Source of the DNA: Cyanobacteria bacterium P01_F01_bin.150
GTDB taxonomy: Bacteria > Cyanobacteriota > Cyanobacteriia > CAKZMO01
Direction of reading: 5' to 3'
NCBI GenBank assembly: GCA_039189765.1
Contig: JBCCYL010000007.1
Location: 32,001-96,000 of the forward strand
Length of the DNA stretch: 64,000 nt
The notes under the pieces are model-generated. The model saw only the letters and a list, made by a program, of their open reading frames with translations. It had not been told where the DNA came from and made no database searches. Positions 23,604-36,067 of the stretch are shown in pieces (the first letter of the stretch is position 1; every line of letters begins with the position of its first letter). A program made the translations under genes and the position numbers.

Positions 23604-26390
23604 ATGAAGGACTCACTACATAGCTTGAACAATCGTTCCCCAGATACTCCCCATGAACCTGATATTGAGACGTTTGTTAATCTGCCGTCCAATAAATTGT
23701 TGTCTCCCGATCCCAAATTACTTGAACCTTGTTGTGAAACTCGGGAAGATGCTCAGAGTATGAATCAACAGGTAGCTATGAACTCTAGTCTGTTACCGCA
23801 AGATGTGACAGTGGAGCCTACAGTCCCATATCCTTTCGAATCAGCTGCTCAGAGACATACTGAGCCAACGGTTAAAATTCCAGATAGTGCATCGAATACC
23901 GAAACTAAAAGCCTTGAAGAAACTGGAACTGCTGGGCGATCGCCTTTTCGTTCCACCTATCTTAGCAATCTAAACCTAAGCGGCTTAAGACTGACAAACC
24001 TCAGTCGTTTGCTACTTGACCATAGTCAACTCTTACGGGATGACGGTAAAGGATTAAGTTTGCTGGGGGTTGGCCATGGCATTGTCGCAGGGATTGCTGT
24101 TGTAGCTTCGGGCTTGACGATACTGAATCCTCCCTGGATTCAATCTTTGGAATATGAAGTTCAAGCCTTCTTCTTCCAACATCGGGGAACGATCAGCCCT
24201 CCTCAAGATATTGTGATTTTGGAAATTGATGAAACATCACTAGCTCAAGGAGAATTTTATAGCAGCGATCCTGATAAATATTCTGATCTTGAACTAATTC
24301 AACAGTGGCCTTGGCAGCGGCAAGTCTATGCGATCGCCATTGAGCGAGTGATGGAAGCAGGCGCTAAAGCAGTTGCTTTAGACCTAATTTTGGATCGACC
24401 AAGTGTTTGGGGAGATAAAGATGATGGTTTTCTCCAATATGCTTTAGAGCGCTATCCCGAAAGAATTGTCTTAGCGTCGAGTTTTGACGATAGTGCAAAT
24501 GATACTGGTTCCACCCTTCAGCTTGCACCTCCTCTCGTTCGCTTTTTGGATGCAGGTGGTAGACCAGGGGTTATTAATTATCCGTTTGCTCCCAATGATC
24601 GTATCCATAAGTTCTCTCAAGTCTGGTTACAGGATCAAGCGGATTCTGATATCGCGATGCAAACATACTTAAATGGATTACCGGACTCATTAACTCAAAC
24701 CTTTGTTGAACAGACGGTATTGGCTGCTCAGAACCGTAATATGGTCGAGACGGTCGAGGCTGATCTATCACTAAGGGGAGAACAAATATTTTTCTATGGT
24801 CCAGCAGGCACCTTTGAGCATGAAGCATTTTGGACTATTTTGGATCCGCAAAATTGGGAGGTGCATCAATTCCAAAATACCTTTCGAGACAAAATTGTCT
24901 TGATTGGCCCCACTGCCAAACTCTTTCAAGACTCGCATCGTACGCCCTTTGGGTTCATGTCAGGGATTGAAATTCATGCCAATGCTATTGCCACCTACCT
25001 CAATAATCGATCGATTACAGAGGCGTTGCCTAATCCTTATCTCAAGGCAGGATTGGTTTTAGGGCTAACTATATTGACTGGATTAGGGGCTAGTTATCCT
25101 CGCCGCACATCGTATCGTATGTTGATTACTCTTGCCGGAGTGAGTGCTTGGACTGTCTTCAGTTATGTTTCTTGGGTTGCAGGACGCTTGGCCTTACCAA
25201 CCGCTGTACCTTTGGGTGCCATTACCCTTGGGGGGGCTGGGTATGTTACGACTGGGTTACTCCAAGAAAAACTGCGCAAACTGAAATTACGTAGTGCATT
25301 GAAACAATATGTCAGCTCCCCTATTGTTCAAGACATCATTAACCAGCAGGATGATCTCCATGATTTAATTTCTGAGGAAGAGAAAGAGACCATCGGCAAG
25401 ATTTTAGATGGGCGATACAAAATTATAGAGATCTTGGCCTCGGGAGGTTTTGGCCAAACGTTTATTGCCCAAGATTTAAGACGTCCGGGTCAACCACGCT
25501 GCGTTGTTAAGCAACTCCGGCCAGTTAGTAATGATCCCCGAGTTTTTCATCTCTCAAGACGGTTGTTTAATAAAGAAGCTGAAACCCTTGAGCGACTCAA
25601 TCATAATCAGATACCTCAGCTTTTGGCTTATTTTGAAGAGGCCCAAGGCTTTTACTTAGTGCAAGAACTGGTTGAAGGGCACCCGCTACGCTACGAACTA
25701 TTGCCTAAGCCAAGTTCAGAATTAAATGTCATCCTTATTTTGAAAGAACTTCTAGAAATTCTTGTCTTTATCCATGATATGAGAGTGATTCATCGTGACA
25801 TTAAACCTAGCAACATTATCCGTCGTCACTCCGATCAGCGGTTAGTCCTCATTGATTTCGGAGCCGTTAAAGAAATTCAGGCAACCGCACCAGGTGAAGA
25901 AGGAGAACCAGACAAAACAGTTTCTATTGGTACTCGTGGTTATATCTCGAATGAACAGTTAGCAGGGAATCCACGATTTAACAGTGATATTTACGCGGTT
26001 GGTGTAATTGGGATACAGGCTAGTACAGGATTATCGCCTGATAAGTTGGTCGATGATGCGGAAACTGGAGAACTCGTCTGGCAGCCATTTTCTGACCATA
26101 GTGAGGCGCTCAAAGAAATTATTGATAAGATGGTCCGATATGATTTCAGTAAACGATATCAGTCAGCTCAAGATGTTCTAGAGGACTTGCAGCCGTTGTT
26201 AGATATGCACATTACAGATGATGAAGGAGCAGTCTCAGCATCTCTGCCAGCATACACAATATTAAAGTCTCACCACAGAACTGAGTTTGGTGATGAGACC
26301 ATTGAACTTACAGATGGCGATTTAGATGCTACAGTTCCTTGGCCGACGGGAGTGAAAGAAGATCTGATTGATGACGCCACAAACTCCTAA
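23604..26390 (+). CDS. CHASE2-domain Ser/Thr protein kinase
   Basis: CHASE2 motifs (WPWQR, VALDL, KIVLIG, GIEIHA), TM helices, kinase motifs SGGFG, VVKQL, HRDIKPSN, DFG and SDIYAVG. Confidence 0.93.
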   Translation: MKDSLHSLNNRSPDTPHEPDIETFVNLPSNKLLSPDPKLLEPCCETREDAQSMNQQVAMNSSLLPQDVTVEPTVPYPFESAAQRHTEPTVKIPDSASNTETKSLEETGTAGRSPFRSTYLSNLNLSGLRLTNLSRLLLDHSQLLRDDGKGLSLLGVGHGIVAGIAVVASGLTILNPPWIQSLEYEVQAFFFQHRGTISPPQDIVILEIDETSLAQGEFYSSDPDKYSDLELIQQWPWQRQVYAIAIERVMEAGAKAVALDLILDRPSVWGDKDDGFLQYALERYPERIVLASSFDDSANDTGSTLQLAPPLVRFLDAGGRPGVINYPFAPNDRIHKFSQVWLQDQADSDIAMQTYLNGLPDSLTQTFVEQTVLAAQNRNMVETVEADLSLRGEQIFFYGPAGTFEHEAFWTILDPQNWEVHQFQNTFRDKIVLIGPTAKLFQDSHRTPFGFMSGIEIHANAIATYLNNRSITEALPNPYLKAGLVLGLTILTGLGASYPRRTSYRMLITLAGVSAWTVFSYVSWVAGRLALPTAVPLGAITLGGAGYVTTGLLQEKLRKLKLRSALKQYVSSPIVQDIINQQDDLHDLISEEEKETIGKILDGRYKIIEILASGGFGQTFIAQDLRRPGQPRCVVKQLRPVSNDPRVFHLSRRLFNKEAETLERLNHNQIPQLLAYFEEAQGFYLVQELVEGHPLRYELLPKPSSELNVILILKELLEILVFIHDMRVIHRDIKPSNIIRRHSDQRLVLIDFGAVKEIQATAPGEEGEPDKTVSIGTRGYISNEQLAGNPRFNSDIYAVGVIGIQASTGLSPDKLVDDAETGELVWQPFSDHSEALKEIIDKMVRYDFSKRYQSAQDVLEDLQPLLDMHITDDEGAVSASLPAYTILKSHHRTEFGDETIELTDGDLDATVPWPTGVKEDLIDDATNS

Positions 26391-26908
26391 AGAAGGTGTA
26401 CATCTTGGATAAAGTTCAAGAGGATAGCTTGGTGAGGAGTTCCAATGGGGCAGATTTTCTGGGCCAGCTTTGAATAGGCTTCTCCGTTGCGAATATCGCT
26501 ATAACTCAAAAAATCCATATCCCATCCTTCATTGAGGATTAACGTGGACAGATCAGCCTTTAGCGGCGCATGATAAACATGACGAATTACAGGAGAGTCA
26601 GTAGTTGCAATGGTGTCGGTGTATGAGCGATACAACTTTAAGTTAGGAGGAACAAAATTAATTTCTTCTAAGAGTTCACGGCTGATGCCATCATCAGGTG
26701 TTTCCCCCGGCTCCAAATGGCCGCCGAAAAAAGCCCAATGGCCAGGATAACGAATTGTTGGAATGTCATCTCGAAGCTGCATAAGGAAACGCCCAGGTTG
26801 GTGGAGAATGGCGATCGCCACCTCAATTTTAGAATGCGCTCCAAAAAAGGGCTGTATCTGCATCACAATGAGTCCACATGCTTGAGAATTACTTGAGACA
26901 GGACTCAA
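26387..26908 (-). CDS. NUDIX hydrolase; likely start near 26863
   Basis: QLRDD...PGHW and the Nudix box GGHLEPGETPDDGISRELLEEI. Confidence 0.9.
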   Translation of the reverse strand: MSPVSSNSQACGLIVMQIQPFFGAHSKIEVAIAILHQPGRFLMQLRDDIPTIRYPGHWAFFGGHLEPGETPDDGISRELLEEINFVPPNLKLYRSYTDTIATTDSPVIRHVYHAPLKADLSTLILNEGWDMDFLSYSDIRNGEAYSKLAQKICPIGTPHQAILLNFIQDVHLL

Positions 26909-27054
26909 ATCATAAAATAAATTGGTTCCAACGTGGAAATCGTAACGTCCTCCCAGTTTGGCTCAGGTAATTGTATCGACGGAAAATTCCCAAAATGTTC
27001 AGAAAAGTCGCCAGATAGTCCGGATTCTCAATCGTCTTCCTAGGAGATAGGAAT

Positions 27055-27104
27055 GGTAGATGCACCCTGATTCGACCCCGTTAGGATTTTCCTTTCGGGG
27101 TTTT
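27055..27104 (+). ncRNA. nsiR1: NsiR1-like sRNA copy 1 (most divergent)
   Basis: TCCGGA at 27019, N18, GGAGA; core; ACCCCG...CGGGGT hairpin and T-run. Confidence 0.7.
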
Positions 27105-27213
27105 CTCTTAGATTTAAATATTCCGTTAGTTTAGAAATTGATAATAGCTGAGATTTATAAAAAAATATATATAAAAGTCCGGATCTTATTAATTTATGAA
27201 GGTAGACAGGAAT

Positions 27214-27262
27214 GGTAGATGCACCCTGATTCAACCCTGAAAGATTTATTCTTTTGGGGTTT
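27214..27262 (+). ncRNA. nsiR1: NsiR1-like sRNA copy 2
   Basis: TCCGGA at 27178, N18, GTAGA; core; ACCCTGAAAGA/TCTTTTGGGGT hairpin. Confidence 0.75.
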
Positions 27263-27592
27263 CCTTATGCTTACTGCCGTAATCTATGAGTGAGCATTTA
27301 GATTTATTGACTGGGCAATTAGAAATTAATTTATTTTATGAAACTTATAGCTATGAATTATTCCAAAATGTGATTATGGAAATATATTTTATTTTTTGAA
27401 TATTTGTATTTTGCGTAAATTTGCTGATGCTCATTTATTTATTGATAATATATTGAAGCTTTTTTGTTGTTAGCTAGTGAACTCATTTGATTTTCGGATA
27501 TTTTTATCGAGCTTTAAAACTTTTTGATGGAAAGAACTATTGTTATATTCAAAATATCCGGATATTGAATTCCTCTATGAGTAACTAGGAAT

Positions 27593-27643
27593 GGTAGATG
27601 CACCCTGATTCAACCCTGAAGAAATTTATCCCTTCGGGGTTTT
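27593..27643 (+). ncRNA. nsiR1: NsiR1-like sRNA copy 3
   Basis: TCCGGA at 27557, N18, GTAAC; core; ACCCTGAAG/CTTCGGGGT hairpin. Confidence 0.75.
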
Positions 27644-27757
27644 CTTGTTTTTTATAATTTTATTAAGGTGATAATTTAAGTTCGTTATAAATATATAGGT
27701 CTTTATTTTTATAGCTAAACTATCCGGAGATCAATATTATTGTAGGTAAGTAGATAT

Positions 27758-27808
27758 GGTAGATGCACCCTGATTCAACCCTGAAAGAATTTATTCCTTC
27801 GGGGTTTT
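27758..27808 (+). ncRNA. nsiR1: NsiR1-like sRNA copy 4
   Basis: TCCGGA at 27723, N17, GTAAG; core; hairpin and T-run. Confidence 0.75.
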
Positions 27809-27920
27809 CTCATTTCTCTATTGATTTAGAGTTTCAAGTGCTTTAATCTATCTTTGAAAGGATTTTAAATTTACGAACAAACTGTCCGGAATATAGATGT
27901 ATTTATAGGTAACCAGATAT

Positions 27921-27971
27921 GGTAGATGCACCCTGATTCAACCCTGAGAGGATTTATTCTTTCAGGGTTTT
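27921..27971 (+). ncRNA. nsiR1: NsiR1-like sRNA copy 5
   Basis: TCCGGA at 27885, N18, GTAAC; core; ACCCTGAGAGGA/TCTTTCAGGGT hairpin. Confidence 0.75.
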
Positions 27972-28074
27972 CTTGACTTTATTCGTTAATTTATAAAATA
28001 TTTAAATACTTTTTTGTTTGATTTCTATGATTAAAATTTCCGGAGTTTAACTATTTCTGCGAGTAAGTAGAAAT

Positions 28075-28125
28075 GGTAGATGCACCCTGATTCAACCCTG
28101 AGAGGATTTATTCTTTCAGGGTTTT
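28075..28125 (+). ncRNA. nsiR1: NsiR1-like sRNA copy 6 (transcribed part identical to copy 5)
   Basis: TCCGGA at 28039, N18, GTAAG; core; same hairpin as copy 5. Confidence 0.75.
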
Positions 28126-28237
28126 CTTGTTCTTAGCCTGCCACTTAGTAAGATTGGAATACCTTCTAAATATCTGCTTATTTATCTTTTCAGCTAAACT
28201 ATCCGGACTTTGAATACTCTTATGAGTAAGTAAAAAT

Positions 28238-28287
28238 GGTAGATGCACCCTGATTCAACCTCGAAAGAATTTATTCTTTCGGGGTTT
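28238..28287 (+). ncRNA. nsiR1: NsiR1-like sRNA copy 7
   Basis: TCCGGA at 28202, N18, GTAAG; core; ACCTCGAAAGAAT/ATTCTTTCGGGGT hairpin. Confidence 0.75.
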
Positions 28288-28632
28288 CCTGTTTCTACAG
28301 GAAAAATGACATAACTTACGTAACTCGAATGCCAATTTTAGGCTGGTAGTGTAGGGGCGTCGCCTTCGCTCTATCTGTGGTTTTGTGTCAGATTAAAGCG
28401 AAACCCCACAACTTAGACTTATTAACGATGAGAACCCAAAGCATTTTGCTGTCGATAAAATCGGTCTTCAGCCTAAAGATATGTACAAAGATATCGCTTT
28501 GTACTAAATCCGTAACGGATAAGGGCAAAAGAATCCATTGACCAACAGGACACGATAAAATCCGGAAAGGATGAATTGGTGACGAATAATGCCATTCAAC
28601 CGAAACTCTTCAATTAATTCGGGGGAAAGCCT

Positions 28633-29091
28633 GTGACTGCTATTTTATCGAATGAAGCTGATGTAACAACTGAACATTATGTTGTCTTGGGCCTGGCGAA
28701 CTGCTTTATTAAAGAAGATGGTGAGGTTCATCCAGTCAAAGTGTTGGAACCCATTCCATCAGCGGCATTGGAAGCCTTGATAAAGGGTATCCCCACATCC
28801 TATAGTTTGGCTTATGCTACTCAAATTGGAGCCATCCTCTCTGACGAAGCCCCCACAATGCCCAGTGTTTTTCCGAAAGATGTGCAGCTATGTGATGATT
28901 TTGCAAGCCGAGCAATCGCTGCTGCACGCACTTACCACTCCCGTCCTGAGGCACAAACTCACATTCCGCTGAATACGACCTACGAAACTTTCAACACGTC
29001 TTTAGATCGGAAGCGCGTATTAAATTCAGAAAACATCGTTAGAACAGAAGATAACGTTAAACAGCACTCATATACACATCAAGTTCTTTAA
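28633..29091 (+). CDS. Conserved cyanobacterial hypothetical protein
   Basis: 152-aa ORF with a GTG start after a purine-rich tract; protein-like composition; 5 nt from the GST ORF. Confidence 0.75.
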   Translation: MTAILSNEADVTTEHYVVLGLANCFIKEDGEVHPVKVLEPIPSAALEALIKGIPTSYSLAYATQIGAILSDEAPTMPSVFPKDVQLCDDFASRAIAAARTYHSRPEAQTHIPLNTTYETFNTSLDRKRVLNSENIVRTEDNVKQHSYTHQVL

Positions 29092-29096
29092 TTAAT

Positions 29097-29666
29097 TTGT
29101 CTAAATTTATGACTCTCAAACTTTACGGTGGTACCCGTACTCGCGCCTCTATTATTAAGTGGTACCTCGAAGAAAAAAATATTCCCTACGATTTTGTTCT
29201 GCTGGACTTACGAGCTGGGGAACATCAAACATCGGAGTTTTTAGCGATTAACCCGATGGGGAAAGTCCCCGCCATTGTGGATGAGGATGTGACTTGTTGG
29301 GAGTCTGGTGCGATTTTACTTTATTTGGCAGACCATTATGCTCCGACTCCTCTAAGTGCCGCTCACCGTGCGGCTTTAGGGCAGTGGGTAATGTTTGCCA
29401 ATGCAACGCTGGGACCAGGCTTGTTTATTGAAAGTAACAGGGAGAGGGAAGGCGATCGCCTCCTTTCTTCTTTAAACAGCGTTCTGGAAAAATCTGAATA
29501 TTTGGTTGATGATGACCTAAGTGCGGCAGATATTGCCGTTGGGGCCTACTTAGCGTACGCCACTATGATGGTCAAACTCACCTATGAGAACTATGGGGCG
29601 ATCGCCACCTATGTGACTAATCTCACTCAGCGCCCTGCCTTCAAGTCCACCATCGGTGCTCGTTGA
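29097..29666 (+). CDS. Glutathione S-transferase family protein; likely start ATG 29109
   Basis: INPMGKVPAI, WESGAILLYLA and SAADI. Confidence 0.92.
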   Translation: MSKFMTLKLYGGTRTRASIIKWYLEEKNIPYDFVLLDLRAGEHQTSEFLAINPMGKVPAIVDEDVTCWESGAILLYLADHYAPTPLSAAHRAALGQWVMFANATLGPGLFIESNREREGDRLLSSLNSVLEKSEYLVDDDLSAADIAVGAYLAYATMMVKLTYENYGAIATYVTNLTQRPAFKSTIGAR

Positions 29667-29772
29667 ATTCTTGCATCGCTTTCGGATGTTAATTTTAGGC
29701 GAATAATGGGGCCTCGTACCTTCATTGACGTTGACTGGGGTTTGTCTGAGAGCAGAACCCCGTTTTTCTTAG

Positions 29773-32700
29773 CTAGAGGCAATTAGAAACAGGCGCTAAG
29801 CTCAAAGATCTGTTGGCGGTCAACTGGATTGAACCATCCGAAGCCACAGTAAATTCTGTAGCTTCTTGAGGATGGGCGTGGATTTTCATGGCAGAGTGAT
29901 TAGTGGGAGGGGCAGAAGAGACTGTTGCGCTCTCAATGGTCTCAGGAATAGTTCCAAAATCAGGAAAAATGTGATACCAGGAGCGATCGCTGTTTCCATC
30001 TGGCTCTGTAGATAACCCACCCTGTCCGATTATGACAAAGTAACTTCCTTGGGCTACGTTACAGGATGTCGAAATAGCTTGAGTCACATCAGTAATGGTG
30101 GTGGGCAGGATGACTGCCGCACTGCTTGGGTCAATGTCGGGAGTTGTAATCTGGACAGTCCCGCTAATTCCTGATTGTGAGCTAGCTGTAATATCGTTCC
30201 CATCTGTCAATCTATCTCTGACGGCTAAGTTAAATAATCCCTCTGTTGTAATTTGAATATTGCCTCCATCTCCATCAAAGGCATTGGCGACAATATCGCT
30301 ATTGCCAGTTGCAGCCAAAAACGGTGATGTAATTGTAATGTTGCCACCATTGCCACCATCTCCCTGCCCTGTACCTGCTTGGGTAGAAATGGCCCCTTCT
30401 CCTCCCCTGTCGGCTAAAATCAAACCCCGATCAATATCGAGAGTGATATTACCGCCACCGCTTTGTTCGCTAAGAGCCGTTATGGCTCCGTTATCTAAAA
30501 TTAGAGTACCGATATCCATTGTTACGTTGCCCGCTCTGGCTTCCTGAGGGAATGACGAGGCTGTAGAAACTGAAGGCGATCTGGATTGAGATCGCGATCG
30601 CCTATTGCTGAATAAACCATCAAAGTTGATTGTGTCTGCACTAGCGGAGACTTCTGCTCCATTTTGAATTAGGAGTAGAGGAGCTGTGACCATAATGTCG
30701 CCGCCTAACCCACTAGCCTCTATTTCAGTCTCTGACGAGAGTAATCGTTGTGCGCCTGCTGATAACCCACTAGCGAATAAACCATCCGAAGGAGAGCGAC
30801 CATCTAATAAAACTTGACCAGATGCTTGAACGGTCAGATTCCCCGCATTCCCCTCACCAAAGGTAGCGGATAAAAACTGCCCTCCGTCTCGAAAGCCTAG
30901 AGTGTTAGTCTCAATCTCGATGTTTCCGGCTGTACCCCTACCAAATGTTGATGTCGTCAATACGGAACCAATAACCTCAATATCTGTTGCTACAACATCA
31001 ATATTTCCCCCAGTACCATCTTTAAAAGCTGAGCTAGCGATAATCCCGCCATTCTGTAAGTGAAGCTGTTCAGAGGTGATTTGAATTTGTCCCGCTTGCC
31101 CTTCTTCTAAGGCAAACGTGCCGATGCCTTGGGTGAAATTATCAGGGCTAAAGGTATTGGTAAACGCAGGCAAAATAGCATTTTGGCGTAAATCTTCACT
31201 GCCCGTACCCATAATATTGATGTCTATGGCTTGAATGTTAATATTGCCTCCATTCCCAGACGTTGTCGTAGAGGCGTTGATTAAGCCATTGTCTAAGATC
31301 AAGTTATGGGTATCAAGGTTAATATCGCCACCGCTGCCTGTGATGGTTGTGGCTGCAATTGTCCCCTGATTTACAAGCTCAGTTGTATTAGTTTCAATCT
31401 CCAGTTCTCCTGAGTCTCCAGAACCCTCCACAATCAAAGATATAGCCGCCTGATCTGAGATTTTTAAGTTGGGAGTTGTAATTGAAATATCGCCAGCATT
31501 CCCCTCCAGACTGTCGTCTAAGCCTAAAACTTGCCGACTCGTGTCATCAACAACAGTCACTTCAGAGCTAATCCGACTCCGAGTCAAGTCATCTGCAAAA
31601 GGGTTAGGAATAGCCCCTCTAACTAAGATTCGCTCTGATGCATGAATATCAAGACTACCCGCATTACCATCACTGATACTCGACGAGTCGATAATATTGC
31701 CATCCAGAATCTCTAATAATCGCGTGTTTATCTCAACAGTTCCGGCATTCCCAGACCCTAGAGTGGCCGAAGAGATTCCAGAGCCACTTAATTGATTGTT
31801 ATTGCCTGTAAGGCGAATGGAATCAGCCTGAATTGAAATATTTCCGCTATTCCCTTGCCCAATTAGGGTAGAAGAGGCAATCACTGCGCCATCTTTTACT
31901 ATCAAATTGCCTGTTTGAAGGTCGATATTTCCGGCATTTCCTCTTCCCCCAATGGCTGTCGCACGAATGGTGCTGACCTCTGTGCCAATTGGCGAGACTA
32001 AAAAAGGATAAACCCCAGCGACTTGAAGCTTATTTTTAGCCCAAATTTCAATGTCCCCCCCTTGCCCAGAGTTAAACGTGGAGGTGTTAATCCGGCCTCC
32101 ATTTCTGACCCGTAATGCTGGTGTCGTAATAAAAATATTACCTGCGGCGCCTTCACCAAGCGTCTCTGCTGCTAGTAACGTCCGAAACTGTGCCTGTGTG
32201 GTCAGGCCATTTACCAGTATTGAATCGTGGGCCTGAACAATAATATTTCCTCCTGGATTGTGACCAGTCTGACTTAGGATTGCTGAGCCACGGTTTAGGG
32301 AAAGCCTGTTTGCTTCAATACCGACTGAACCGGCTTGGGAAGCACTGACATCTACCAAGGCAAGATTAGACAGTTGGATGTCATTAAACAAAGTGCCTTC
32401 ATAGTTAAAGTGCCAGGGAACTGAATTTTGGGTGGTATCGGCAACTATTTCAATTCTGCCTTGAGCTACGCTGCCTAACTCAATGCTCCCACCAGGCGCT
32501 GTGAGAACTGCTCCATCAAGCTGAATGGTGTTACCAATAAAGGCTAAAGATTGACCAGATGATACTTCTAGGCCAAGACTATCGCTGGCATTATTGGATA
32601 TGGGAAACAAGTCACTGATTTGATTCAGTTGATGACCGGGGCCTTGAATTTCAACTGCACCTGAAGACTGGCCGAGCTGTAATCCAATGGGAGTCTTAAT

Positions 32701-33210
32701 GGAGAGTAAGGGCGATGACTGGAGGTCGGAAATACTAAATTCTAGTTGATTATCGAATAATAAGCGATCAGCCGTAGTTGCTAGAAACGAACCACCAATA
32801 TCTAAACGGGCATTGGGGCCAAACAGAAAACCATTAGGATTAAGCAAGAAAAGATTAGCATTCCCGTTGGCTTTAATTAACCCGTCAATATTAGAAATCT
32901 CACTGCCGGTAATGCGGCTAATAATGTTCTGAATATCTATTGCATTGTTGAAGTATACTGAGCTATCAGTAGGAATCGAAAACTGATCAAAGCTGTGAAA
33001 TAGATTGATTCCTGCTTGATCGCCTTGCTCAATTACAAAATTGAAGTTATCGATTGAGCGAACAGTAGTGGAAAGAGTTCCGTCATGGGTAACTTGGGCT
33101 AATGCTTGATGTTGCCCTTGAATACTAAAGTTGACCAACAGAAAGAGGCCTAAAGTATTAATTATTTTTATCCATGGGTGGTAAATAAAGCTGTTTTCAA
33201 CACTGACCAT
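29773..33210 (-). CDS. Filamentous haemagglutinin N-terminal-domain exoprotein
   Basis: Signal peptide ALAQ, NLFHSF, LFLLNPNG, GxxGxIxI repeats and C-terminal GQGGL. Confidence 0.9.
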   Translation of the reverse strand: MVSVENSFIYHPWIKIINTLGLFLLVNFSIQGQHQALAQVTHDGTLSTTVRSIDNFNFVIEQGDQAGINLFHSFDQFSIPTDSSVYFNNAIDIQNIISRITGSEISNIDGLIKANGNANLFLLNPNGFLFGPNARLDIGGSFLATTADRLLFDNQLEFSISDLQSSPLLSIKTPIGLQLGQSSGAVEIQGPGHQLNQISDLFPISNNASDSLGLEVSSGQSLAFIGNTIQLDGAVLTAPGGSIELGSVAQGRIEIVADTTQNSVPWHFNYEGTLFNDIQLSNLALVDVSASQAGSVGIEANRLSLNRGSAILSQTGHNPGGNIIVQAHDSILVNGLTTQAQFRTLLAAETLGEGAAGNIFITTPALRVRNGGRINTSTFNSGQGGDIEIWAKNKLQVAGVYPFLVSPIGTEVSTIRATAIGGRGNAGNIDLQTGNLIVKDGAVIASSTLIGQGNSGNISIQADSIRLTGNNNQLSGSGISSATLGSGNAGTVEINTRLLEILDGNIIDSSSISDGNAGSLDIHASERILVRGAIPNPFADDLTRSRISSEVTVVDDTSRQVLGLDDSLEGNAGDISITTPNLKISDQAAISLIVEGSGDSGELEIETNTTELVNQGTIAATTITGSGGDINLDTHNLILDNGLINASTTTSGNGGNINIQAIDINIMGTGSEDLRQNAILPAFTNTFSPDNFTQGIGTFALEEGQAGQIQITSEQLHLQNGGIIASSAFKDGTGGNIDVVATDIEVIGSVLTTSTFGRGTAGNIEIETNTLGFRDGGQFLSATFGEGNAGNLTVQASGQVLLDGRSPSDGLFASGLSAGAQRLLSSETEIEASGLGGDIMVTAPLLLIQNGAEVSASADTINFDGLFSNRRSRSQSRSPSVSTASSFPQEARAGNVTMDIGTLILDNGAITALSEQSGGGNITLDIDRGLILADRGGEGAISTQAGTGQGDGGNGGNITITSPFLAATGNSDIVANAFDGDGGNIQITTEGLFNLAVRDRLTDGNDITASSQSGISGTVQITTPDIDPSSAAVILPTTITDVTQAISTSCNVAQGSYFVIIGQGGLSTEPDGNSDRSWYHIFPDFGTIPETIESATVSSAPPTNHSAMKIHAHPQEATEFTVASDGSIQLTANRSLSLAPVSNCL

Positions 33211-33400
33211 CAGTATCCAAAAAATGTTTTGTTCGCCTATGTTTTAATGCGGTATTGAGTGATAGGGGCAAAGTGTCTCATATTGTCATTAAAATTTTCC
33301 AGACTTTGGCTATGGGCATAAACCTTTTCATTTCCTTAATGTTCCCAATGCTGAAAGAACTTACTATGCCTATTTACGAAGATTCGTATGATGAGGACTA

Positions 33401-36067
33401 TCATTTTAGAGTAGAGTGTAGAGACGGGTCACAGTTTGACTCGATTGAGTTGATGATCGGATTTGTACCCGAGATTAATTGAATCTTGCCTGAGGATGCG
33501 ATCGCCATTTGGGAGGCCTCTTGAGGCAATAGGGGAGTTAGAAAGGCCGTGGAAGTTTGGAAAACACCAGGAGCAGGAGCATCGGCAATAGAATTCGGTA
33601 TGGTGCCGAAATCAGGAAGAATATTTGGCCAGGGGCGATCGCCATCGCCATCAGGATTGGTCGGCAACCCACCTTGGCCGGTAACCACAAATTGACTGCG
33701 GCTAGTCGACTCACCACATGCTGTGGCAACTTGATCGGTGGCATCGTTCACTGTTGAGGGCAACAAAATAGCATCTGCACCAGGATCAACATCTGGTGTT
33801 GTAATGCTAACAGTACCGCTTACACCAAATTCTGAACTAGCGGTGATATCGTTGTTGGACGTTAAACTATCTCGAAACGCAATATTGAATAAACCTTGAG
33901 TAGTGATTTGAATGCTGCCGCCATTGCCAGTAAATGCATTGGCCTCAATATCACTATTGCCAGCAGCAACAATAAATGGAGCTTCAATTTGGATATTTCC
34001 CCCATCTCCACCACCGCTATCTACTGTTCCGGCCCGAGTTGAAATAGTACTCATATTGGATAAAAAAAGTCCATCATCAACCGTCAGATTAACGCCTCCA
34101 CCCCTACCAGACGAGAGAGAGGATGCGTTGATTCGGCCATTATTTAAACGTAGAATGTGAGCATTAATAGTTATACTACCTCCACTGACGGTATTCGTTG
34201 TTGCAGTGATCGCGCCCTGGTTCTCTAAGGCTACTCTTTCGGCAGAAATGTTTAATTGTCCCGGATTGCCGTCACCAGATACATTATTGATGGTTACAAC
34301 GCCACTATCAGCAATACGCAAATAAGGAGTGTCAATGGTAAGATTGCCCACATCGCCCGCTGGAATCGGTGATAAGTCCAAAATTTGCCGAATCGAGTCA
34401 TTGAGAGTGATGACGGCAGAACTAATGGCACTAACCTGAACGTTACCTTCACTATTTCTGAGTCTAAACCCTTGCACAACAACTTGTTCAGATGCACTGA
34501 TTTTTAAATCTCCAGCATGCCCAAGGCTTGCACTTGCAGAGTCCACAATGTTGCCATCTAAGACAACCAACTCGCGAGTATTGATCCTAATATCTCCTGC
34601 ATTGCCGTCACTTAAGGTACTAGAAAAAATTCCAGCACCTCCAATTTCAATTTGGTGAGTCGTTCCCTCTAAACGAATGGAGTCAGCCTCAATAAGAATA
34701 TCCCCTCCTGTTCCTTCTCCAGCTAGAGTAGATGAACTGATAATGCCCCCGCCTCTAACCCTAACGATTGGACTATTAATGTCAATATCCCCTGCATTGC
34801 CTAAACCGCCAATGGTGGTGGCTCCAATGACACTAACATCCGTCCCACTCTTGGCAATAGGAGATATTCCCTCTACGTGAAGGGCCTCTTCTGCTCGAAT
34901 ATGAATACTGCCTGAATCACCACCATCAAACGTCGTCGATCTAATTGCTCCTCCATTTTTAAGCCTCACTAAGGGACTTTGAATATCGATGAGGCTTCCT
35001 TGGCCACTACCTAAAACTTCTGCCCGAATTGAACTGCGAAAATTACTTGAATTGACCCCACGAATGATAAGAGACTCGTCGGCATAAACTTGGATAAATC
35101 CAGCTAGAGCATTGCCTGCATTTTGGCTAAGTAGAGTAGAACCTCCGCTCAAACGAATTTGATCGCCTTGTAAAGACATCGAACCAGCCTGATTTGCGCT
35201 GCTATCTAAAAGGGCATTACGAATCAACTGAATGTTATCGAAAGAGGCCCCGTCATAGGAAAAGACCCAATTACCATTATTGTCGTCGAATTTGATAATG
35301 CCGTCCCGAGCGCTACCGAGTTCAATATGTCCCCCTGCCGTCGTTAATACGGCTCCATTCAGCGTTAAAGAACTACCAAGCAACGCTAAATTTTGAGAAG
35401 AAGATACTTCAAGGCCCAATGATTCGGAGGAATGATTGGTCGTTTGGAGAAGGTCGTTACCTTGCATAAGCTGGTGTCCTGAACCCAGCACTTCGATAGA
35501 ACCGGGTTCAGCCCCCATTTGTAAGCCCAAAGGGATATTAATCGATAGTAATCTTTCTGCTTGACTTGCACTAAAAGTAATATCATCTTCAAATAAAAAA
35601 CTGTCGGCAGTGGTTACCAAAAATGAACCACCAATATTTAAGCGAGCATTAGGGCCAAAAATAAAACCATTGGGATTGAGCAAGAAAAGACTGGCAGTGC
35701 CATTAGCTTGAATTAAACCATCAATATCAGATAGACCTGAACCAGTAACTCTAGTAATGATGTTTTCAATGGCGATCGCATTACTAAATTGGGCAGAACC
35801 ATTAGTGGGAATTGAAAACTGCTCAAAACTATGAAAGAGATTACGATTGACACGATTACCTGCATCAATCACAAAGTTGAGATTATCTGTGGTGGTTACA
35901 GTGGTAGCCAGAGTTCCATCTGGGGTTACTTGCGCATAGACAGCAGGTTGCAAAATAAAGCCCCACATTAGAGTAGCAGCACCTATGGAAACGATATCTG
36001 CTGCGCATTGGCATGTTGACATCACTCTTTGCATCCTCCAAAGAATGGTCATTCCAGAAGTGGGCAT
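33401..36067 (-). CDS. Filamentous haemagglutinin N-terminal-domain exoprotein (paralog of 29773..33210; start uncertain)
   Basis: VYAQVTPDGTL, NLFHSF, LFLLNPNG and C-terminal GQGGLP/PDFGTIP. Confidence 0.9.
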   Translation of the reverse strand: MPTSGMTILWRMQRVMSTCQCAADIVSIGAATLMWGFILQPAVYAQVTPDGTLATTVTTTDNLNFVIDAGNRVNRNLFHSFEQFSIPTNGSAQFSNAIAIENIITRVTGSGLSDIDGLIQANGTASLFLLNPNGFIFGPNARLNIGGSFLVTTADSFLFEDDITFSASQAERLLSINIPLGLQMGAEPGSIEVLGSGHQLMQGNDLLQTTNHSSESLGLEVSSSQNLALLGSSLTLNGAVLTTAGGHIELGSARDGIIKFDDNNGNWVFSYDGASFDNIQLIRNALLDSSANQAGSMSLQGDQIRLSGGSTLLSQNAGNALAGFIQVYADESLIIRGVNSSNFRSSIRAEVLGSGQGSLIDIQSPLVRLKNGGAIRSTTFDGGDSGSIHIRAEEALHVEGISPIAKSGTDVSVIGATTIGGLGNAGDIDINSPIVRVRGGGIISSSTLAGEGTGGDILIEADSIRLEGTTHQIEIGGAGIFSSTLSDGNAGDIRINTRELVVLDGNIVDSASASLGHAGDLKISASEQVVVQGFRLRNSEGNVQVSAISSAVITLNDSIRQILDLSPIPAGDVGNLTIDTPYLRIADSGVVTINNVSGDGNPGQLNISAERVALENQGAITATTNTVSGGSITINAHILRLNNGRINASSLSSGRGGGVNLTVDDGLFLSNMSTISTRAGTVDSGGGDGGNIQIEAPFIVAAGNSDIEANAFTGNGGSIQITTQGLFNIAFRDSLTSNNDITASSEFGVSGTVSITTPDVDPGADAILLPSTVNDATDQVATACGESTSRSQFVVTGQGGLPTNPDGDGDRPWPNILPDFGTIPNSIADAPAPGVFQTSTAFLTPLLPQEASQMAIASSGKIQLISGTNPIINSIESNCDPSLHSTLK

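Follow-up and report, generated by a model that had tools for sequence, protein, structure and literature searches.

A seven-unit tandem array of NsiR1 small-RNA genes with sigma-HetZ-type promoters in a cyanobacterium outside the Nostocales

Seven promoter-RNA-terminator units stand head-to-tail and in register in one intergenic stretch of the window (the whole 64,000-nucleotide stretch of DNA that was analysed; positions are those of the window unless a contig is named). The array belongs to the NsiR1 family of small RNAs, and not to the nsiR1-hetF locus type of the Nostocales. We consider it likely that it is a dosage array of a trans-acting small RNA, driven by the sigma factor HetZ, which arose through lineage-specific tandem amplification of NsiR1 genes.

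The seven units and their surroundings

The same seven units, with the same spacings of 159, 379, 165, 163, 154 and 163 bp, were recovered as in an earlier note made from the sequence alone. Each unit starts with its TCCGGA motif; the units and the genes beside them are the following:

26387..26908, minus strand: left neighbour, a divergent Nudix hydrolase gene outside the system (NCBIfam Nudix matches below cut-offs)
27019..27108, plus strand: unit 1; -35 TCCGGA at 27019, N17, -10 AGGA; NsiR1 RNA 27054-27108 with terminator hairpin (fold); Rfam 44.8 bits
27178..27268, plus strand: unit 2; N17, -10 GGTA; NsiR1 RNA 27213-27268; Rfam 48.4 bits
27557..27648, plus strand: unit 3; N17, -10 AGTA; NsiR1 RNA 27592-27648; Rfam 45.7 bits
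27723..27813, plus strand: unit 4; N16, -10 GGTA; NsiR1 RNA 27757-27813; Rfam 48.0 bits
27885..27976, plus strand: unit 5; N17, -10 GGTA; NsiR1 RNA 27920-27976; Rfam 47.3 bits
28039..28130, plus strand: unit 6; N17, -10 AGTA; NsiR1 RNA 28074-28130; Rfam 49.9 bits
28202..28292, plus strand: unit 7; N17, -10 AGTA; NsiR1 RNA 28237-28292; Rfam 47.3 bits
28633-29091, plus strand: right neighbour, a conserved hypothetical gene
29097-29666, plus strand: right neighbour, a glutathione S-transferase

The Rfam model RF02399 (NsiR1, gathering score 39) matched all seven units over its full length with 44.8-49.9 bits and no other Rfam match was present in the window, thus the resemblance to NsiR1 which the earlier note had pointed out was borne out by the model search. 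An identical 21-mer, already recognized as invariant there, is found in every unit and occurs eight times in the 10.6-Mb genome, the eighth time on contig C98. The promoters follow the pattern TCCGGA-N16/17-RGKA-N8-T in 7/7 units, with AGGA, GGTA or AGTA as -10 box, and the final T is the opening base of the Rfam match. The intergenic stretch (26909-28632, 1724 bp) has 33.9% GC (13-32% in the linkers) against 46.7% in the genome, and its sole open reading frame of at least 60 amino acids (27040-27234, minus strand) is an antisense reading of units 1-2 which the coding model did not call; the region is thus AT-rich and free of a credible gene, as had been stated.

The predicted RNAs are about 53-57 nt long, somewhat longer than the roughly 50 nt first proposed, and their 5' end is uncertain by 2 nt, since the Rfam match and the sigma-HetZ consensus place it on the T and Table S3 of PMC4734099 (for the Nostoc RNA) on the second G. 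In the predicted fold of each RNA a 5' hairpin of three pairs is followed by an unpaired stretch and then by the terminator stem. The hairpin and U-rich tail were seen in 7/7 folds (a simple terminator scan caught 3/7), and together with the promoter geometry this agrees with the proposal of an own promoter and terminator for every unit. An alignment of 17 copies of the genus-type hairpin, drawn from the host genome and three others in the genus, gives a terminator stem that is 96.6% paired and in which both partners have changed in three pairs, and sliding the pairing by 1-3 columns lowers the whole structure from 97% to 34-73% paired. The covariation of the stem is modest: the count of three double changes was reached by 34 of 500 shuffles, and the compared copies come from kin genomes. 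The overall pattern, in which the core is invariant, the stem stays paired and the promoter spacers and linkers have diverged, fits selection on function. The linkers differ for the most part, as the earlier note had it, except that linkers 3 and 6 have a common 3' end (0/200 shuffles as good).

Two further candidates were rejected. The promoter-like TCCGGA at 28561, which lies upstream of the hypothetical gene, was not counted as an eighth unit, as it is absent from 5/5 orthologs. The core resembles positions 16-35 of tRNA-Thr and tRNA-Leu, but in a comparison with the 78 host tRNAs 28 and 22 of 500 shuffles, respectively, were equally similar, and mimicry of, or origin from, a tRNA D-loop was set aside. 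Elsewhere in the genome, contig C4 gave more than 30 ARAGORN calls (e.g. 23817-26783), including tRNAs with unusual anticodons, which suggests a tRNA gene cluster.

The pair of the hypothetical gene and the glutathione S-transferase gene is kept in 5/5 relatives searched, and in none of them is an NsiR1 core present within 1.5 kb. An ESM Atlas query with the downstream hypothetical protein returned nothing. Further downstream (29773-36067, minus strand) two adjoining large proteins are encoded, the first with a filamentous haemagglutinin N-terminal domain and the second apparently similar by its sequence; large proteins of this type are common in cyanobacteria.

The stretch was found in one sequencing run, labelled marine metagenome. 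Contigs of run X1 match 25500-27944 and 28080-30000 with zero differences, although X1 may be the source sample and is thus not independent. Within the array (27215-27944) the contigs of this run have a depth of 10-11 against about 42 in the flanks. The cause could be that AT-rich DNA was poorly covered, or that part of the population has a shorter array; among the X1 contigs no joint for a shorter array was listed.

Promoters and the regulatory genes of the host

According to PMC13342950, HetZ is a sigma factor which reads TCCGGA-N16-17-TGNA-N7-9-T, and DIF1 promoters depend on HetR indirectly. All seven promoters fit TCCGGA-N16-17-NGNA-N7-9-T when compared with this published consensus, therefore HetZ, and not HetR, is most likely their direct reader. 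The designation as HetR-dependent DIF1 promoters in the earlier note has to be amended accordingly, since any dependence on HetR would be indirect only. The fit has its irregularities: three -10 boxes begin with G, which is partly tolerated in vitro, and unit 1 carries at -11 a G that lies outside the tolerated bases given in the same paper. The ChIP table of PMC13342950 reports a HetZ peak over nsiR1(1-12) which is reduced in the hetZ mutant, and it also marks nsiR1 expression as 'up' in a leaky hetZ mutant, which simple HetZ-dependence does not predict. In Anabaena, no sharper early reporters at the single-cell level are known than the NsiR1 promoters (PMC4030482).

The promoter type extends well beyond the array. 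A hexamer with at most one mismatch from TCCGGA stands 35-38 nt upstream in 326/343 distinct copies of a sample that favours this class through its search pattern. In the host genome there are 58 strict sigma-HetZ-type intergenic sites, six of them in the array, where unit 1 lies outside the strict pattern. In three genomes which have only the paralog HetZ' and no HetR match (two Chamaesiphon MAGs and G023) all seven promoter-bearing copies read TCCCGA or TCCTGA. TCCTGA is also frequent where both sigma factors are present (61/326), and a preference of HetZ' for TCCTGA/TCCCGA is only a lead.

The host genome (10.64 Mb, 46.7% GC, 99% complete, 4.7% contaminated) contained neither nifH nor nifD over the cut-off. 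Its assembled 16S is a 133-nt fragment. In a single-gene HetR tree of 42 rows, in which the deeper branches are unsettled, five named Nostocales form a clade without the host (100/99), and the host groups with six members of its family and the MAG J06627_8 (93/94). The phylogeny and the gene search agree with the non-heterocystous host supposed earlier. The genome carries two hetR genes and hetZ', as well as a hetZ that scores over the family cut-off and is followed by a patU equipped with its own TCCGGA promoter. There are also two patX-like ORFs, one of them just before the second hetR. This second hetR (contig C19, 21133-23253) is 59% identical to the first, directly follows the patX-like ORF, which ends in RGSGR, and has two GGG-N5-CCC boxes 600-900 nt upstream. 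The absence of an adjacent hetF was likewise found again: hetF lies on contig C30, unlinked to the array, with no core in the 1.3 kb upstream of it. A tblastn search with four HetP-family queries, taken from two Nostocales genomes, did not find a hetP-like gene (best E 0.039).

Compared with the sigma-HetZ (DIF1) regulon and the HetR-PatX/HetZ-PatU circuit as described in PMC13342950 and PMC7377430, the host thus shares the promoter consensus in 7/7 units, the regulatory genes and a conserved patU promoter inside the end of hetZ. It differs in having no heterocyst output, and the exact HetR box upstream of hetZ was not seen. Among 20 hetZ loci this box stands at the expected place in only two, both Nostocales-like, and outside the Nostocales hetZ may be under a weaker or different direct control by HetR.

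The NsiR1 model gave 12 matches in the host genome, 10 of them over the cut-off, and five lie outside the array. Those on contigs C98, C104 and C124 have TCCGGA promoters; those on C2 and C184 lack one and are both under the cut-off. The copy on C98 is single and near-identical (52/57 nt). The single copies at C104:27798-27849 and C124:16234-16283 start within about 90 and 10 nt of ORFs (one divergent, one upstream on the same strand), where local cis effects are possible. The sub-threshold copy at C184:5026-5076 (minus strand) lies downstream of a flavodiiron-protein-like gene and has neither a TCCGGA nor a HetR-type box.

With NsiR1 of Nostoc/Anabaena sp. PCC 7120 (RF02399) the array shares the 5' core, the small 5' hairpin with terminator, the length (about 55-60 nt there) and tandem copies with their own DIF1 promoters. 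In contrast, the host stands outside the Nostocales and is without nifH/nifD, the array is not upstream of hetF and no antisense copy accompanies the host hetF; a hetP-like target was not found, and the copies have another, genus-specific terminator hairpin.

Distribution of NsiR1 and a second gene class

NsiR1 was described from heterocyst formers (PMC6596454, PMC4030482; for the context of hetR, patX and DIF1 see PMC11298460 and PMC7761841). Homologs outside them are already on record: Table S3 of PMC4734099 (2016) has 38 NsiR1 homologs among 89 genomes, of which 27 belong to heterocystous strains and 11 fall outside heterocyst formers, with the columns of Trichodesmium, Arthrospira PCC 8005, Oscillatoria and Microcoleus marked, and PMC8400943 (2021) describes the 57-nt NsiR1-like RNA162 of Limnospira indica PCC 8005, detected by RNA-seq. 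These records share with our case an NsiR1 in filamentous cyanobacteria without heterocysts and differ in that the parts of the sources consulted give presence only, with no arrays, promoter classes or targets. No NsiR1 array in a non-heterocystous strain was found in the literature searched, and the primary papers (Ionescu 2010; Brenes-Alvarez 2020, Environ Microbiol) lie outside that search. The novelty which the earlier note saw in a system outside heterocyst differentiation is in part removed by these records.

In our scans the Rfam model matched 16/16 other genomes of the host family and 8/14 genomes of other families. A scan of named genomes returned at least 125 stretches, and many non-heterocystous taxa were among the matches listed, as were arrays in Symploca sp. 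SIO2C1 (6 copies), Leptolyngbyaceae MO_188.B28 (4) and Microcoleus vaginatus (3); one match in a Clostridia MAG is an evident chance hit. In 50 named genomes from these matches (completeness not given) a HetR match was present in 48, two of them weak, and nifH in 21. Since arrays of 4-8 copies occur in other non-heterocystous genomes, the multicopy arrangement is nothing special to this host. Position is labile even within the genus of the host, where the same hairpin type is found at other loci (five copies beside hisA in G003, pairs and singles in G001 and G002).

A sample of 151 genomes of the class, at least 90% complete, was searched for the exact 15-nt core. It was present in 85, all-or-none by family (23/36 families), and the reversed control had zero matches. 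A full-length hetZ-family gene was found in 84 genomes, the core in 84/84 of these, and hetR in 82 of the 151; in this co-occurrence kin genomes are not independent, and assembly gaps can hide genes. Four genomes (G023, G026 and the two Chamaesiphon MAGs) have the core and a hetZ-family gene but no HetR match, and one (G141) has the core with neither. Family f32 (3/151 genomes) is the only Nostocales-like one in the sample, a placement inferred from the HetR box of hetZ and the HetZ tail, which match published Anabaena sequences. At 24 hetF loci, chosen for having the core and so indicating recurrence and not frequency, a divergent antisense copy stands 180-720 nt upstream of hetF in 23, including Symploca, Crinalium and Phormidesmis.

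A second gene class, outside the window, has the same core behind a different promoter, with a GGGG-N5-CCCC box about 40 nt upstream, an extended -10 of sigma-70 type and a distinct terminator. The host copy (C2:114624-114716) precedes ffh and has a GGG-N5-CCC box over the -35; as GGG-N5-CCC occurs only 0.23 times per kb in the host, the box is beyond chance. The pattern is present in 70/151 class genomes, that is in 70 of the 85 with the core, and in 38/50 named genomes, not including Nostoc foliaceum, Atlanticothrix and Tolypothrix. Five listed rows are first-class copies matched by chance, and the three genomes concerned also each have a true one. The commonest neighbours (30 loci) are gatB upstream and ffh or argJ downstream, and this class is also found in arrays (8 copies in Symploca sp. 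SIO1C2). The box fits the HetR requirement GGGnnnnnCCC given in PMC4192349 and resembles the hetP site, thus it may be a HetR-type site; as it overlaps the -35 position, its sign could be either activation or repression. hetR was found in 69/70 box-bearing genomes, and G141, without hetR, keeps the gene without the box. Against this reading, G026 has the box and no HetR match.

The novelty of the locus is thus lower than first claimed. What is new is the presence of the core in all 84 hetZ-bearing class genomes, the HetR-box gene class and a pairing with patU described below, and these lie mostly outside the window. No mention of a second promoter class or of the patU pairing was found in the literature searched, outside which some key papers fall.

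Possible targets and function

In Nostoc, hetF is the cis target of NsiR1.1, and NsiR1.4 acts on the hetP-like alr3234 in trans (PMC9045159). Neither target applies in the host: since cis-antisense action on hetF is not possible and no hetP-like target was found, the host targets must be other mRNAs. For this reason the array probably serves to amplify the dosage of a seed that acts in trans. Going by the published consensus, RNA polymerase carrying sigma-HetZ or the paralog HetZ' would start at the seven promoters, and the predicted transcript of each unit is a 53-57-nt RNA that begins with the same 20-nt 5' core and ends in an intrinsic terminator of its own, a structure which the folds support. 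The seven promoters would raise the dose of one seed when the HetR-PatX/HetZ-PatU circuit is on. By analogy with Nostoc, the seed would pair in trans over ribosome-binding and start regions via the anti-Shine-Dalgarno-like CACCCU and lower translation, and the RNA would probably be bound by PatR. Sibling multicopy trans-acting small RNAs of other bacteria (PMC9045159) likewise deliver one seed additively from several genes; the host copies differ in their head-to-tail order and in having a developmental sigma factor as driver.

In a duplex scan of 7241 crudely called host start regions, a gene set outside which the patX ORFs fall, no target was clearly beyond shuffled RNAs (best -26.4 kcal/mol against -23.4 to -26.1 for six shuffled ones). 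The regulatory genes ranked 7212 (hetR1), 5102 (hetR2), 2031 (hetF), 727 (hetZ), 1271 (patU) and 164 (hetZ'). A pairing site upstream of host hetZ (-20.6 kcal/mol) was discarded, since it is inside the coding sequence of the divergent gene and is a top-two site in only a few of 21 other hetZ loci.

The lack of a prominent host target, together with a 15-18-nt core that is invariant over 23/36 families whereas the host either lacks the known targets or has them unlinked, could also mean that the RNA is mainly a protein ligand or sponge (e.g. for PatR or an RNA-binding PatU), whose copy number sets how much protein is titrated. CLIP-seq does show PatR bound to NsiR1, and for PatU3 of Nostoc RNA binding has been validated (PMC11797042). 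Nevertheless pairing-dependent repression of alr3234 and hetF was demonstrated in Nostoc (PMC9045159), and many non-heterocystous genomes have retained the divergent antisense copy upstream of hetF, so we regard a pure ligand role as unlikely. We give even less weight to the view that a functional NsiR1 needs only one or two copies and that the others arose neutrally, by unequal recombination between the short identical cores. The labile number and position of copies in the genus, the flanking gene pair without a nearby copy in the relatives and the lone near-identical copy on C98 are in its favour. However, the linkers and spacers have diverged almost beyond alignment, yet none of the seven units has lost its -35 or -10 box, its core or its stem, and the 288-bp linker, checked for a decayed unit, contained none; intact units amid diverged linkers point to lasting selection on every copy. 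That the DNA promoters are what matters, as a decoy sink of tandem sigma-HetZ sites with the RNA as by-product, is very improbable: the array does hold 6/58 of the strict intergenic sites, but the transcribed core and terminator are more conserved than any promoter part except the -35 and -10, and the same core stands behind a quite different promoter class in 70/151 genomes.

Besides the dosage-array reading of the locus, the hetZ-patU junction, outside the window, gives a second lead. At the end of hetZ, the 16 nt that lead up to the patU start codon have a family-weighted consensus almost complementary to the NsiR1 core (59/62 loci; the three without the junction pattern were dropped). The duplexes average -14.2 kcal/mol, compared with -8.5 +/- 1.4 for shuffled cores (2/1000 as low), for a pairing which was noticed post hoc and whose segment is in part the patU Shine-Dalgarno and at the same time coding sequence and a promoter spacer. 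The host junction (C7:104340-104369) and 58 orthologous ones have a conserved TCCGGA-N17-TGAA promoter, the spacer of which is the pairing segment. The junction is in the top decile of its own locus in 8/18 families, the host not among them, and in ten families including that of the host (host -5.8 kcal/mol) the pairing has decayed with the core unchanged. In Anabaena the first ORF after hetZ is patU5, which is reported to have no part in differentiation (PMC7377430). The junction pairing may be a relic of the origin of the RNA rather than a live target.

On this basis a wider reading can be put forward tentatively, which we hold to be doubtful as a whole. NsiR1 would be an ancient core-circuit RNA of filamentous cyanobacteria, with the ribosome-binding site of patU as its original target, and it would be wired twice, through sigma-HetZ promoters and through an ancestrally single gatB-ffh/argJ gene with an extended -10 and a HetR-type box. 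Sigma-HetZ would induce NsiR1, NsiR1 would repress the anti-sigma factor PatU, and sigma-HetZ would be freed in a feed-forward loop; the family of the host would have lost the patU pairing and would act on other targets instead. If this were true, the arrays would tune the gain of a cell-state switch older than heterocysts.

It should be emphasized that the interest of the case rests on the tight link to hetZ and on two leads, the HetR-box class and the patU pairing, and not on a single locus. Both leads are specific predictions testable in existing model strains, and the seven-promoter array, together with NsiR1 in every hetZ-bearing genome sampled, provides a ready reporter for patterned cell states. 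[quoted passage not shown]
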